The notes under the pieces were generated by a model, which saw only the letters and a list, made by a program, of their open reading frames with translations, searched no databases and was not told the DNA's origin. A DNA stretch of 64,000 bases from an uncultured candidate division Zixibacteria bacterium. GTDB taxonomy: Bacteria; Zixibacteria; MSB-5A5; UBA10806; 4484-95. The position numbers and the translations under genes are program-made. Shown piece after piece: positions 28,899-32,818 of this stretch (its first letter is position 1; each line of letters opens with the position of its first letter). Where the stretch lies: assembly GCA_963668625.2 (NCBI GenBank), contig CAXXKA010000006.1, forward strand, positions 96,001 through 160,000, given 5' to 3'.

Positions 28899-29696
28899 TT
28901 GAGTGTATTCACCGACCTTCTGGGGAGTATCACTGCGGGAAAATTTTATCATGATATCCTCACTCGTCCGGCCAAAACCGGCTGGATGCTTTACCTGTTG
29001 CTGATTACCTGTTCGGCAATCGTTCTCACCGTATATTGGGGAGTTAAAGCTAATTCTTATGCTGATGAGGCAGTCGAGTTTTTCGCCGGCCTCGATGCCG
29101 AGATAGTATTCGAGAAGGGGATTATTACCAATATGCCGCTTTCCCACAAGGAATACTATTTTAAAGATCTGACTATTTATGTTGATAGTAAATATGTTGA
29201 TCTCCAAAGTACCGAGGAGGATATGGAAAACGCCGAGAAACCAGTCGTTTTTATCGGTGCGAAAGCAGCCTACCTGACCTCCACGGAAAGGGCTGAGGAG
29301 ATAGCATACCCACCGGCGTTTTCTGAGACAATCGATTTGGATTACCTGAAAAAAACGAAATCGATACTGATAGCCGGCGCATTTTTCGGTGGATTTTTGG
29401 TCTGGCTGTTGATTAAATTTATCGAGAGCATGGCTTATATCGCGCTGATAATTACACCGATACTTTTATTCAAATTCAGGCGGCGTGGTTTGACTTATCC
29501 CGAGGGATTCGGAGTCGGTTTATATCTCGCTACTTTTCAGATAATACTCTCTACGATTTTACTTCTTGTGGGATTCGCATATATTTGGGTTCACCTGATA
29601 TTCATTTTATTATATGTGTTTTTTATAGGCGCATACGTGAATATAGATCTCTCCCATAGCAATCGTCAATTATATAAAGAGAGCGCTTCCCAATGA
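28899..29696 (+). CDS. Membrane protein (DUF1189-like)
   Basis: N-terminal TM, extracytoplasmic loop, several C-terminal TM helices; TTG start after AGGAG. Confidence 0.55.
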   Translation: MSVFTDLLGSITAGKFYHDILTRPAKTGWMLYLLLITCSAIVLTVYWGVKANSYADEAVEFFAGLDAEIVFEKGIITNMPLSHKEYYFKDLTIYVDSKYVDLQSTEEDMENAEKPVVFIGAKAAYLTSTERAEEIAYPPAFSETIDLDYLKKTKSILIAGAFFGGFLVWLLIKFIESMAYIALIITPILLFKFRRRGLTYPEGFGVGLYLATFQIILSTILLLVGFAYIWVHLIFILLYVFFIGAYVNIDLSHSNRQLYKESASQ

Positions 29697-30694
29697 AAAT
29701 AGCTATAACCGGCGCCAGTGGATTTTTAGGTGGAGGATTGGCCGAGACGTACCACGAGCGCGGGGATGAGATAACCGCCCTGGTGCGTAAGAGCTCCGAC
29801 ACCTCGACGCTGGAGCAACTGGGAGCCAAACTGGTCGTCGGTGAACTTAACGAACCCGAATCATTCAGCCGTCTGGTAGAGGGCGCCGATATCGCCATAC
29901 ACTGTGCCGCTATGGCGACGGATTTCGGACCGTGGGAGCAATTTCAATCCATAAATGTCGATGCCGCCAGGTTATTTTTCGAGGCTTGCCTGAAAAGCAA
30001 GGTTAACCGTATTATCTACATTTCCTCGGTAGCAGTCTATGGCAACGGCCGTCACCACCGAGGTACGGATGAGGAAGCGCCGTACGAATCGATAATCACC
30101 GATAATTATACTAAATCGAAAATCATGGCCGAGCGTATAGCCTATAATTTTATCGATCAGCATAGCTTGCCGCTCGTGATTATCCGGCCCGGTTATATCT
30201 GGGGGAACGGTGACAAAGCCGTCATGCCGAAAATGATTTCCTCTATTAAAAAACGCCAGGTCGCGGTTATCAATGAGGGCGTCAATTTGATGAATCTCTC
30301 GCATGTCGAAAACGTAATTCAGGGAATCATGCTAGCCGCCGAAAGCGAGAAGGCGATCGGGAGGGTATATAATCTCACCGATGGTTCGAAGGTTACCACG
30401 AGGAGGTTTTTCGAGGATTTGCTCGAGATGCTGGGTGTGGATATCAAAATAAAATCGTTTCCTTACGCCCCGGCTTATGTCGCCGCCTCCCTGGCGGAGA
30501 TGTATTGTCATATAACCGGCTATCGGAGTTATCCTCCATTTACTCGCTACACTGTCAAGATGGGTAAATACGATCAAGTGTTCGATATCTCACGAGCCAT
30601 ATACGAACTCGGTTATAAGCCGAAAATTCGTTATAAAGAGGGTATGGCCGGGATGATTCGTTACGTACGGCGATTGTATTACGGACAAAAGTAA
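29693..30694 (+). CDS. NAD-dependent epimerase / 3-beta-HSD-like extended SDR
   Basis: TGASGFLG, ISSVAVYG, YTKSK, RPGYIWG. Confidence 0.9.
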   Translation: MKIAITGASGFLGGGLAETYHERGDEITALVRKSSDTSTLEQLGAKLVVGELNEPESFSRLVEGADIAIHCAAMATDFGPWEQFQSINVDAARLFFEACLKSKVNRIIYISSVAVYGNGRHHRGTDEEAPYESIITDNYTKSKIMAERIAYNFIDQHSLPLVIIRPGYIWGNGDKAVMPKMISSIKKRQVAVINEGVNLMNLSHVENVIQGIMLAAESEKAIGRVYNLTDGSKVTTRRFFEDLLEMLGVDIKIKSFPYAPAYVAASLAEMYCHITGYRSYPPFTRYTVKMGKYDQVFDISRAIYELGYKPKIRYKEGMAGMIRYVRRLYYGQK

Positions 30695-30731: not shown

Positions 30732-30938
30732 CTATTTAGTAACAGCCTTTTTTCTCTGCGTATGTTTCTTCTTTATGAGTTTAGTCTCAATCAACTCGGA
30801 TGAATGCTTTAATGTCACCCGCCCGGGGCGACAATCATCATTCTGTCATTTAGCTTTGGATGATTTATATGCATGCAGATTTATTATAATTACAGTCAAA
30901 CAAAAAGCAGCGACGAGTATAAGCAAAAAGTAAAACAT
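30732..30938 (-). CDS. Candidate small membrane selenoprotein C (68 aa; UGA at codon 31)
   Basis: Manual translation MFYFLLILVAAFCLTVIIINLHAYKSSKAK-U-QNDDCRPGRVTLKHSSELIETKLIKKKHTQRKKAVTK*; TGA at 30846-30848; hairpin at 30813-30833; weak RBS. Confidence 0.5.
30813..30833 (-). promoter_or_regulatory. SECIS-like hairpin of ORF C
   Basis: UGUCGCCC-CGGGC-GGGUGACA; the loop starts 20 nt after the UGA. Confidence 0.55.
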
Positions 30939-30959
30939 AATTGGAAACCCGATTTATTC

Positions 30960-31157
30960 TTATCGATTAACTCCGGTTCTATCTCGTTGCTGCCGGTTAT
31001 TTTTCGTCTCGTTGCCGGAGAATTCTTTCAGTTTAGCCGCACGGGCTTTCTTGCGTCTTTTCGATCAGGGGCCGACCGTGTTGCTCCAAAGCAATACCCC
31101 GGTGATTATAACCGCAATTCCTATACCGATATTATACACCATCGAAAGTGCTGTCAT
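30960..31157 (-). CDS. Candidate small membrane selenoprotein B (65 aa; UGA at codon 31)
   Basis: AAGGAAG RBS; MTALSMVYNIGIGIAVIITGVLLWSNTVGP-U-SKRRKKARAAKLKEFSGNETKNNRQQRDRTGVNR*; TGA at 31065-31067; short AGCC-CGUGC-GGCU hairpin at 31035-31047. Confidence 0.5.
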
Positions 31158-31478
31158 AACTTCCTTTTCCTGTTTTATGATAATATTTTACCGTCTGGCT
31201 TTAGAAATCGGTAGATTGATTATCGGGATTTAGCCTCACCGATTCACTTTGTTGCATTATGGATGGATCTATAAATCGTTTTCAGTTGATAGGTATGTTT
31301 ATTGAATTATGTTAATTAGTAATATCACTAGTGTCCGGTGTTTTTCGGTAAGTTTCAACTTTCACCATGGAATTGTCAGTAAAAGATATTTTCCGATATA
31401 ACTATATATTCAGCGTATCATGCATCCTGATATATTCTGCCGATGTTAGGCTTAGTTCCCTGGTTTCCAAGCGCTGTC

Positions 31479-31572
31479 TGGAAACCTTCTTGAGTCATGT
31501 GAAATGCGCATTCTGCCAGCAAATAAGCCACGTTGCGACGCATCGCTTGGCAACGAGATGGAAAGGCCGGAT
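31479..31572 (+). repeat. ~93-bp direct repeat, copy 1
   Basis: TGGAAACCTTCTTGA.TCATGT..AATGCGCATTCTGC...AAGCCACGTTGCGA.GCA.CGCTT.GCAACGAGATG, shared with 32930-33022. Confidence 0.85.
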
Positions 31573-31638
31573 AGTTGTGTAATATTGTATTGATTAAACA
31601 GTAAACGGTTTAGGTCTTAATCTGTAATCTTATTCGCT

Positions 31639-31782
31639 TTAATTTTTATCTTTTTTATCACTCCGCCCGGGAGGACAACCCTCGGGGCGCATTCACGTTT
31701 TTATTCCCATCTTGGGGAACAGGTATATCTGTAGAACGAGATACACGCCGAGTATTAGTATTAAGGTCAGGATATCATTCAT
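31639..31782 (-). CDS. Candidate small membrane selenoprotein A (47 aa; UGA at codon 30)
   Basis: MNDILTLILILGVYLVLQIYLFPKMGIKT-U-MRPEGCPPGRSDKKDKN*; TGA at 31693-31695; hairpin at 31655-31678; no clear SD. Confidence 0.6.
31655..31678 (-). promoter_or_regulatory. SECIS-like hairpin of ORF A
   Basis: UUGUC-CUCC-CGGGC-GGAG-(U)-GAUAA; the loop starts 23 nt after the UGA. Confidence 0.55.
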
Positions 31783-31852
31783 AGTGCGTATAGTAACTTT
31801 GTTTTGTGATAAATAGTTTCATTGCACGAAATGTAAACTCACAATATCAATG

Positions 31853-32818
31853 TTAATCGATGAGTCTACCGCAGTTGTGGCAGAAAAAGCCGCTTTCTAT
31901 TTTATCGATTTTGAAATGCCTCATATCGGCATGTCCATAGTACTCGCTACCCAAGAAAAACTCACCGAGAAATGCCCCGCACTCAGTACATGTATTAGCA
32001 AGATATTTTGATCTGGCGGTCTTTGAATACTGATATTTGAGAATGACTCCTTCATTACGTGCCTGCTCCATTTGTTTTATAGAGAAACGCGCAGGGCCAT
32101 GCAGTAATGTGCCATCCTGTGATGACAGTACAGCTGCTTTCATGGGAGAGTGGCATTTATAACATTCAGCGGTTATTATATTCAGGTATTTTTTGCTCAA
32201 ACCGCCGCCGCATTTTTCGCATTTCCCGTGAAGGCATATCGATACGGCTGATGGTGTTAATACGGGTTCCCAGAGCATGTTAAGATCAAGATCACTTTTT
32301 AATGTGAATTCGATTACAATGATATTATTGCTGGTATAATAATCACGAGCTTTATCATCTGGGGCATGAGTTACAATTACCTCGACTACGGCAAATATTT
32401 CACTATCTTGATCGAACAATGCGATATCGGGTATGCAATCGCCTGTGTTATACTCCATCTCCGCGCGAGTTACTTTCTTGAGCAGATTGCCCATGTGCTC
32501 ATCGAGGCATTGGTTGCATTGCCATTTAAACGGCAGCTCGGCACTATCATCAATAGCTTTTCGGATTTTATCGAACAGCAGCATTTTAAAACCGAGATGA
32601 ATAGCTGATTCGGGCGAGCATGGTTTATCGGTAGGCAGATGCGAGAAATGCGGACGTTTCAGAAGTCGCCGGCTGCTTTTGAATATCATCGGGCCGCCGC
32701 ATTCCAGGCAATGGTATTCGATACCTTTAACCGCTTTGGCGGCATGCACTAGATTATTTTCGGGATCGTAAGCTACCGGGTATTTTAGCTCTTTCATGGT
32801 ATTATCATATAAAATCAT
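31853..32818 (-). CDS. CoiA-like protein: zinc ribbon, PD-(D/E)XK-like nuclease domain, C-terminal Cys clusters
   Basis: YHCLECGG...RPHFSH...ESAIH..FK; PDIALFD...VVEVIVTH; several CxxC pairs. Confidence 0.7.
   Translation of the reverse strand: MILYDNTMKELKYPVAYDPENNLVHAAKAVKGIEYHCLECGGPMIFKSSRRLLKRPHFSHLPTDKPCSPESAIHLGFKMLLFDKIRKAIDDSAELPFKWQCNQCLDEHMGNLLKKVTRAEMEYNTGDCIPDIALFDQDSEIFAVVEVIVTHAPDDKARDYYTSNNIIVIEFTLKSDLDLNMLWEPVLTPSAVSICLHGKCEKCGGGLSKKYLNIITAECYKCHSPMKAAVLSSQDGTLLHGPARFSIKQMEQARNEGVILKYQYSKTARSKYLANTCTECGAFLGEFFLGSEYYGHADMRHFKIDKIESGFFCHNCGRLID

Follow-up and report, generated by a model that had tools for sequence, protein, structure and literature searches.

The 64,000-nt stretch analyzed here (hereafter the window), positions 96,001 to 160,000 of contig CAXXKA010000006.1 from an uncultured candidate division Zixibacteria bacterium, contains an intergenic interval whose minus strand holds three small open reading frames (ORFs). 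On one side of it lies an epimerase gene on the plus strand (29693-30694) and on the other a minus-strand gene of 321 codons that encodes a CxxC protein (31853-32818). The three ORFs, which we call A, B, and C, are built alike: 29-30 mostly hydrophobic codons are followed by an in-frame TGA, and a hairpin with a CGGGC or CGUGC loop starts 12-19 nt past each TGA. A sequence-only reading of the window had proposed that these hairpins are selenocysteine insertion sequence (SECIS) elements, by which UGA would be read as selenocysteine (Sec; U in protein sequences), and that their shared loop may be the SECIS consensus of this lineage. All three hairpins are present on the minus strand as that reading described them. 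The features are as follows:

31642..31782, minus strand: ORF A, 47 codons; its translation gives 29 residues with one helix, a predicted Sec at codon 30, and a 17-residue lysine-rich tail with a cysteine (Cys) at U+6
31693-31695, minus strand: UGA of ORF A (codon 30), an invariant alignment column with Sec/Cys pairing, in a genome with Sec machinery
31639-31641, minus strand: TAA stop of ORF A
31655-31678, minus strand: hairpin A, nine pairs with one bulged U, loop CGGGC, -7.9 kcal/mol as drawn, 23 nt from UGA to loop
31661-31673, minus strand: core of hairpin A, CUCC-CGGGC-GGAG, with the lower stem (5 bp) beyond the bulged U
30963..31157, minus strand: ORF B, a 65-codon read-through ORF with 30 hydrophobic codons and a basic tail without Cys; an orphan
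31065-31067, minus strand: TGA of ORF B, with 34 codons open in frame afterwards
31035-31047, minus strand: hairpin B, four pairs (AGCC/GGCU), loop CGUGC, -3.7 kcal/mol, 21 nt from UGA to loop
30735..30938, minus strand: ORF C, a 68-codon read-through ORF with 30 hydrophobic codons, a Cys at U+5, and a lysine-rich tail; an orphan
30846-30848, minus strand: TGA of ORF C, with 37 codons open in frame afterwards
30813-30833, minus strand: hairpin C, eight pairs, loop CGGGC, -12.1 kcal/mol, 20 nt from UGA to loop

Is the TGA of ORF A conserved among relatives? When the 24 genomes of the order were searched in six frames with the read-through product, 14 yielded an ortholog, each with a single TGA at the same codon; the other 10 gave no match or weak TGA-less matches only. 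The start codon lies exactly 29 codons before the TGA in 11 of the 14 (of the other three, one has 28 codons, one lacks a start codon, and one is truncated at the end of its contig). The protein alignment has the consensus M..LEI.LIIG.WL.L..YLFPKLGIPT-U, with U, P23, and G26 the same in every sequence. In the sister genome G002 the TGA, the U-MRP...C motif, and the position of the stop are all retained, while the Cys codon has changed from TGT to TGC. Hexamer coding scores, taken against a background of 5,357 open intergenic segments of the genome, place ORF A in the top 0.2% before its UGA and in the top 3.8% after it, where the frame stays open for 17 codons.

The family extends well beyond the order. 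A profile search of a protein collection retrieved 201 proteins, and the figures given here rest on the best 120 of them. Among these, 88 are exactly 29 residues long, and four longer proteins that we examined are N-terminally extended but still end just before the UGA. All 22 of the full-length relatives examined (44-69 residues) carry Cys at the U position (e.g., FPKLGIPT-C-MSGAC). A DNA pattern scan for FPKLGIPT followed by TGA, TGC, or TGT, with one genome per species, captures solely members with that exact peptide; it yielded 39 loci, namely 30 TGA forms, four Cys forms, and five chance matches that lack the helix. The titles of the TGA-form records span Nitrospirota/Thermodesulfovibrionales, Deltaproteobacteria/Desulfobacterales/Thermodesulfobacteriota, SAR324, Acidobacteria, Coatesbacteria, and Zixiibacteriota. 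Records titled Thermodesulfovibrio and Desulfonauticus are among the matches of the pattern scan. One Sec form (L096, U-MSGAC) sits within the clade of C-MSGAC Cys forms.

We assembled a set of 40 distinct Sec-form genes: the order supplied 14 and the pattern scan 26, after two contig-cut genes and two duplicates of the order set had been dropped. In all 40 the tail runs for 12 codons or more without a stop, and an in-frame Cys occurs in 32 of 40 tails, compared with 9 and 6 of 40 in the other two frames, which contain stops in 13 and 34 of the 40 genes. In a dozen loci (L035, L037, L038, L041, L043, L082, L083, L089, L090, L093, L101, and L108) the read-through frame is itself closed by another TGA, often directly behind ..KKC(x); one transcript would thus use UGA both as Sec and as stop within ~20 codons.

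The genome that carries ORF A (10 contigs, 95.9% complete) has what is needed to decode Sec. With 68 bits the tRNA-Sec is above its cut-off of 47, and ARAGORN calls it tRNA-SeC with anticodon tca; selB scores 347.9 bits (cut-off 242.25) and selA 467.8 bits (cut-off 267.9). Two selD genes score 405.1 and 353.8 bits, both above the cut-off, and the second contains one in-frame TGA. The gene content of the source organism is that of a Sec decoder with complete machinery. selA was matched in 24 of 24 genomes of the order, above the cut-off in 23. In the remaining one, G020 (C102:4460-5867), which carries a TGA form of the small gene, selA was matched as two consecutive pieces of 238 and 203 bits, both sub-cut-off, which suggests a frameshift or an assembly error. 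Published comparative criteria for selenoproteins ask for Sec machinery, TGA-containing homologs with an open frame, and aligned Cys homologs (PMC12013277), and ORF A has all three. It is therefore very probably a conserved selenoprotein gene by its classical comparative signature.

Does a structured RNA accompany the conserved UGA? All 14 orthologs of the order have a small hairpin ~20 nt past the UGA with the core YCCC-G(U/G)N-GGGR, and hairpin A aligns with it. The stems vary in length and sequence (e.g., CCGUUCC/GGAACGG, GCUCCC/GGGAGC, and CUCCG/CGGAG). When the 14 sequences are laid on a seven-pair structure, 80.6% of cells pair, compared with 70.8 ± 2.3% in shuffled alignments (none of 500 does as well), and with the partner shifted by 1-3 columns the figure is 59.2% at best. 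Eight cells are changed on both sides where 2.9 are expected (0 of 500 shuffles), and the covariation score of 0.243 compares with 0.134 in shuffles (0 of 500 reach it). Across the 40-gene set, a position-specific hairpin of SECIS type—defined as a fully paired stem of 4 bp or more that closes a loop of 3-7 nt starting (N)G[G/U], 16-24 nt past the UGA, at -2 kcal/mol or better—is found in 35 genes; in dinucleotide-shuffled sequences the count averages 4.0 and never exceeds 9. Loops most often start 19-23 nt past the UGA. Two of the four Cys forms have no such hairpin and one has a weak one. The peptide encoded at the hairpin varies while pairing persists (RSVRT, RPVGK, TPPGG, APGGS, SSVGT, TPPVR, and CSPVR), which implies that the constraint acts on the RNA and not on the peptide. 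Hairpin A, at the site of a conserved, covarying hairpin in UGA-conserving orthologs of a family with Cys relatives, is very probably the bacterial SECIS of ORF A, and this part of the sequence-only reading gains comparative support.

A covariance model (R1) built from the 14 orthologous UGA-hairpin stretches gives A 30.6 bits by construction and two members from other phyla 18.8 and 16.9 bits. It matches neither B, nor C, nor the SECIS of any known-family gene in the genome, and for that reason we set it aside as too sequence-specific to define a lineage consensus.

How well does hairpin A fit what is known of bacterial SECIS elements? The consensus model, as given in a 2026 review (PMC13188914), has 3-9 nt in the apical loop and 4-16 bp in the upper stem, a G at one of the first two loop positions that is usually followed by G or U, a spacing of 16-37 nt, and an energy of -7.5 kcal/mol or lower. 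All three hairpins have the loop and stem sizes (A 5 nt on 4 bp, B 5 on 4, and C 5 on 8), and, as had been noted from the sequence, the G at the second loop position (CGGGC/CGUGC) and the spacing (23, 21, and 20 nt for A, B, and C) agree with the description. In none of the three can the two C bases at the ends of the loop pair, which departs from the commonest pattern. In energy, A (-7.9) and C (-12.1) pass the limit and B (-3.7) falls short of it; B had been singled out as the weakest, with only 4 bp, and is so. Like the elements decoded by SelB, with Escherichia coli fdhF as prototype, hairpin A sits inside the coding frame just past the UGA at a spacing of 16-37 nt, in a genome with selA, selB, selC, and selD. 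It differs from them in that its upper stem has only 4 bp and in that the free RNA favors a competing upstream fold.

Several results weigh against taking hairpin A for a working SECIS. In a free 61-nt RNA its pair probability is 0.0, since a fold starting 4 nt past the UGA wins. Its loop CGGGC lacks U, and its first and last bases do not pair, unlike most consensus loops (PMC13188914). Four pairs have a change on both sides, a number that 51 of 500 shuffles reach, and RNAalifold retains the inner four pairs only (-2.96 kcal/mol). The folding energy of the 45 nt past the UGA is at the level of dinucleotide shuffles (mean z -0.2 over the 40 genes); five of these 40 have no hairpin under the simple criterion, and one of the four Cys forms has a strong one at a shorter spacing. 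The related genomes are kin, so that none of these counts is made of independent cases. Finally, no RNA sequencing run is listed as containing the locus, the two listed runs being contigs of one study.

The first of these objections may depend on the state of the RNA. A ribosome paused on the UGA would cover the bases just downstream, which we imitated by removing the first 9-15 nt past the UGA. The pair probability of hairpin A then rises to 0.96-0.99; those of B and C, which are 0.35-0.38 and ~1.0 in the free 61-nt RNA, become 0.68-0.98 (0.91-0.98 with 12 nt removed) and 0.75-1.0. The minimum-energy fold of the 61 nt around hairpin B (z-score +2.0) does not contain it.

Is CG(G/U)GC the SECIS consensus of this lineage? 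We searched the genome for TGA codons with coding-like sequence both before and after them and checked the candidates by Pfam. Five genes of known selenoprotein families were found, with the following hairpin loops:

HdrA-like gene, first copy (C-S-I-U): loop GGUC, -10.3 kcal/mol
HdrA-like gene, second copy (C-S-I-U): loop GGUC, -11.5 kcal/mol
Peroxiredoxin gene (AhpC-TSA domain spans U): loop GGUC, -9.6 kcal/mol
DUF1573 gene (U-G-C; domain spans U): loop AGUU, -7.9 kcal/mol
selD gene: loop GUU, -11.6 kcal/mol

The loop of the E. coli fdhF SECIS is likewise GGUC. The scan also turned up two paralog pairs of secreted proteins (Por_Secre_tail) with an in-frame TGA in a CxxU motif (CLDU/CDEU and CRSU/CVGU):

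C4:261547-262503, C1:92026-93030, C8:761682-763970, and C8:764194-766473: the four secreted CxxU candidate selenoproteins (L119-L122)

Their hairpin loops are GGUC, GUU, AGUUG, and GUG. A genome-wide scan for a TGA with a CG[GU]GC hairpin recovers none of the known-family or CxxU candidate genes. The proposed lineage consensus does not hold: all five known-family genes use GGUC, GUU, or AGUU. The comparison with known selenoprotein genes, which the sequence-only reading had named as its check, refutes that reading in part. Within that family, CG(G/U)GC is found in 6 of 35 hairpins: CGGGC in four (A and three of Nitrospirota type) and CGUGC in two (that of G020 and that of L080, whose record is titled Deltaproteobacteria). 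One set of family members with a CG(G/U)GC loop also includes a SAR324-titled record, and the variants CGGGA and CGGGUA occur as well. The CG(G/U)GC loop is a recurrent variant within the small-protein family and not the general SECIS consensus of the genome.

Two further TGA-containing ORFs were noted in the same genome. An FmdB-like zinc-ribbon ORF (L123, C8:55614-55656) ends CGSGGFS-U-G-stop and matches model R1 at 18.9 bits; its hairpin, GUCCG-GUU-CGGAC, lies ~20 nt past the UGA, beyond the real stop, and the CG[GU]GC scan does not recover it. In a radical-SAM ORF (L125, C8:835227-837029) codon 92 is a candidate in-frame TGA with coding-like sequence on both sides, and the Radical_SAM domain lies well after it.

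Do ORFs B and C have the comparative support that A has? No relatives of either were found in the 24 genomes of the order (all E-values >0.02). Among 285 genomes of the phylum the best per-genome E-values were 1e-3 for C and 2e-4 for B, and the four best of these matches, when examined, looked like noise, being unrelated frames with mixed stops. A word-indexed protein collection gave nothing for B or C, its coverage of 35-119 residues placing 30-residue fragments outside its reach, and an exhaustive HMMER search of 1.84 billion representatives with ORF C returned 0 hits. Against the family A profile, B and C each reach an hhalign probability of 0.3%, and neither has a Pfam or NCBIfam match. 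Neither TGA- nor Cys-homologs of B or C thus came out of the searches made. Extra A-like and C-like matches in the sister genome G001 (L050, L060, and L062) were judged to be noise. Of the claim that all three hairpins are SECIS elements, the part about A stands, while B and C are without comparative support.

The two are not equal in what speaks for them. ORF C shares the architecture of A (30 residues, U, a Cys at U+5, and a lysine-rich tail), its coding score is ordinary before the TGA (top 26%) and in the top 2.1% after it, and its hairpin is as strong as the proven-type SECIS elements of this genome. For context, TGA is an ordinary stop here that ends 692 of 2,816 long ORFs, and a hairpin of -11 kcal/mol or better in SECIS position follows two of those 692. 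We put the chance that hairpin C serves a working Sec site at a little under even; otherwise it would be a copy or relic. ORF B scores in the top 2.7% before its TGA and in the top 4.1% after it. The likeliest account of hairpin B is that four pairs form by chance behind a UGA that is an ordinary stop; ORF B, if a gene at all, probably ends at its UGA, and a working Sec site there is unlikely. That both B and C are working Sec sites is less likely still.

Are the three hairpins related to one another by descent or by selection? The covariation that had been claimed among them is seen in part: between A and C one U-A pair has become C-G and one C-G pair has become G-U, whereas B shares the loop only. 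A 21-nt direct repeat with 81% identity, including the Cys codon and the loop, is common to A and C, and a 1-nt indel in the 3' arm separates the two, the reading frames diverging there. Their local alignment covers 29 nt only and scores 26, compared with 19.3 ± 2.8 (maximum 31) in 200 shuffles; duplication of the whole gene is unsupported, the score being within the shuffle range. The B/C region is single copy in the genome. Loops of sequence CG[GT]GC closed by at least four pairs number 257 among the 12,132 such pentamer loops of the 4.3-Mb genome, close to the ~240 that we estimate from (6/16)^4. The motif is therefore at chance level and is not a repeat family of the repetitive extragenic palindromic (REP) type, the alternative that the sequence-only reading had itself named as able to overturn it. 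Its statement that the hairpins lack a U-tract and are not intrinsic terminators also agrees with our scan, in which no U-tract or terminator-like site coincides with A, B, or C on either strand. When a TGA is also required 16-37 nt before the hairpin, the genome-wide number of CG[GT]GC hairpins drops to 81; A, B, and C are three of them, and a single strand carries all three inside 870 nt. Such clustering is unlikely by chance, though the pattern was defined from these same three sequences.

Which explanation accounts best for the locus? We consider it highly probable, from comparative sequence evidence, that ORF A encodes a 47-residue single-pass membrane protein in which UGA codon 30 is read as Sec with hairpin A as its SECIS. 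A more generous explanation would make A, B, and C three tandem selenoprotein minigenes, each with a working SECIS sharing the CG(G/U)GC loop. The arrangement invites it: three hydrophobic 29-30-codon ORFs end in TGA on one strand with a loop 20-23 nt downstream, they account for 3 of the 81 TGA-linked hairpins of this kind within 870 nt, and the frames of B and C run on for 34 and 37 codons. Coding-like scores on both sides of the TGA of B and after that of C, the strength of hairpin C, the pairing of hairpin B once 12 nt are removed, and the CGUGC loops of true family A members point the same way. Against this, neither B nor C has a relative in the 24 order genomes, the 285 phylum genomes, or the protein searches, nor a match to the family A profile; B misses the -7.5 kcal/mol limit of the consensus model and has no Cys in its tail; the score of C before its TGA is ordinary; and the loop pattern was drawn from the very sequences it is meant to unite. 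On balance we regard three working minigenes as improbable.

At the other extreme, there may be no SECIS at all, the UGAs being ordinary stops of 29-30-residue micro-proteins and the hairpins incidental or concerned with stability or termination. TGA is a common stop in this genome, gene callers do give 29-residue proteins for most of the best 120 of the 201 family entries, the folding energy past the UGA does not exceed that of shuffles, and for B and C this is the simplest reading. For A it conflicts with the Cys found at the UGA position of full-length relatives, with a frame that is open in 40 of 40 genes and enriched in Cys, with a read-through stop kept between the source genome and G002, and with a position-specific hairpin that lies inside the read-through frame and has no U-tract or terminator-like site; the explanation as a whole we hold to be very improbable. 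Equally remote, in our judgment, is the idea that a conserved Pro-x-Gly peptide rather than RNA structure explains the conservation past the UGA in family A, with Sec inserted through another or weaker signal. The core CCC-GNN-GGG does encode P-(V/G)-G in most members of the order, and the RNAalifold consensus is short and weak. The residues nevertheless vary, members from other phyla encode unrelated residues yet form a hairpin at the same distance, and changes on both sides keep the pairing. Furthermore, PPG(S/T)VG directly follows the UGA in two unrelated CxxU candidates of this genome as well, which points to the RNA as the determinant of the peptide.

Has this family been described before? 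Twelve members searched against NCBIfam 20.0 and six against Pfam-A gave no match at cut-off, the best score being 14.8 bits compared with cut-offs of 45 and 70. In the Protein Atlas the best cluster for a Cys form (0.88) is a "hypothetical protein" without Pfam assignment. Table 1 of the 2026 review holds 119 prokaryotic selenoprotein families, and none of them is alike by description (PMC13188914). Full-text literature searches found no description of family A, with the supplements of deep-Sep (PMC12013277) and BSepDB (PMC13326102) outside that coverage. Several catalogued small selenoproteins (the dual CXXC motif small protein, KCU-star/DUF466, UXX-star, and GOS_B/GOS_C/DG/DW/DF) are comparable, being also short, functionally uncharacterized, and predicted from Sec/Cys pairing and a SECIS; by description, however, none is a single-helix protein of ~47 residues with FPKLGIPT-U. 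Among eukaryotic membrane selenoproteins, selenoprotein S (Sec188, Cys174) resembles A in having one membrane helix and a hydrophilic tail with Sec and a partner Cys that may form a selenenylsulfide (PMC3628699). In eukaryotes the SECIS is in the 3' untranslated region, and the Sec of A would stand right at the helix end, not close to the C-terminus, in a protein four times smaller. The likeness is one of architecture only, and a sequence relation is not expected. Family A thus appears to be an uncatalogued, widespread micro-selenoprotein, recoded by a mechanism that is itself of a known kind.

The genes around family A are inconsistent between lineages as a clue to function. In the source genome the upstream gene is the 321-residue CxxC protein, which has no family match. 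In the order, 10 of the 14 loci (L035-L038 and L040-L045) have an ORF of 308-416 codons immediately before the small gene, often a few bases away or overlapping; the eight such ORFs that were scanned are all acyl-CoA dehydrogenases, and this linkage is absent from the genus of the source genome and present in the second family of the order. Four Nitrospirota-type loci have rpoA-rplQ upstream, and two SAR324-type loci (one titled Deltaproteobacteria) have a methyltransferase. In three of the four Cys-form loci (L109, L111, and L114) the small gene lies between a thioredoxin gene and a DsbD_TM-thioredoxin fusion gene; in L111 the ORF on that side, a putative thioredoxin gene, is on the opposite strand. 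The Sec-form locus L108 has Thioredoxin_2 and DsbC_N genes upstream. The thioredoxin/DsbD flanking of three of four Cys forms is the one suggestive functional hint.

Within the window, Rfam gave no family match at gathering scores over all 64,000 nt. A dispersed repeat of ~255-260 bp (31322-31580) lies between ORFs A and B and excludes all the hairpins. It has 119 blastn hits genome-wide (E <= 1e-5, 82-91% identity, both orientations) and no Rfam match, and its 71-codon plus-strand ORF scores negative for coding. ORFs A and B also share a 20-nt A/T-rich stretch, equally far ahead of each start codon (~31789-31819 and 31170-31189, minus strand); its alignment score of 23 is inside the shuffle range.

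How would the UGA of ORF A be decoded? A ribosome arriving at the UGA would hold the first dozen or so downstream bases in its mRNA channel, so that the competing fold melts. The hairpin ~20 nt downstream could then offer its G-rich apical loop to SelB carrying Sec-tRNA(Sec), and Sec would be delivered at codon 30 in place of release factor 2. From its N-terminus, which is short, the predicted product would run through one helix to the motif FPK(L/M)GI(P/K)T-U at the membrane surface and on into a lysine-rich tail. Because the N-terminus is acidic and the tail rich in lysine, the positive-inside rule would put the tail in the cytoplasm, and the Sec probably at the cytoplasmic face. In most members a Cys lies 4-10 residues past the Sec or near the C-terminus (..KKC), where the two could make up a selenenylsulfide redox pair or a metal-binding site.

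What would such a gene mean? The novelty lies in the gene that is served, a single-helix protein of ~47 residues; SelB with an in-frame hairpin is textbook. In databases nearly every entry of family A is a "hypothetical protein" of 29 residues that stops at the UGA, and, as the family shows, censuses of selenoproteomes miss micro-proteins. A bolder and rather improbable extension is that B and C are very young, lineage-specific selenoprotein genes, in which an A-like module of UGA plus SECIS was copied behind new hydrophobic micro-ORFs, and that family A forms a Sec...Cys redox or metal site at the membrane surface with partners of the thioredoxin/DsbD type. If that were true, B and C would offer a direct view of selenoprotein gene birth, and few bacterial selenoproteins would be smaller or more widespread than family A. 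The family would provide a compact natural UGA-SECIS cassette and a very small, tractable Sec/Cys pair with which to study the preference for Sec at the membrane surface.

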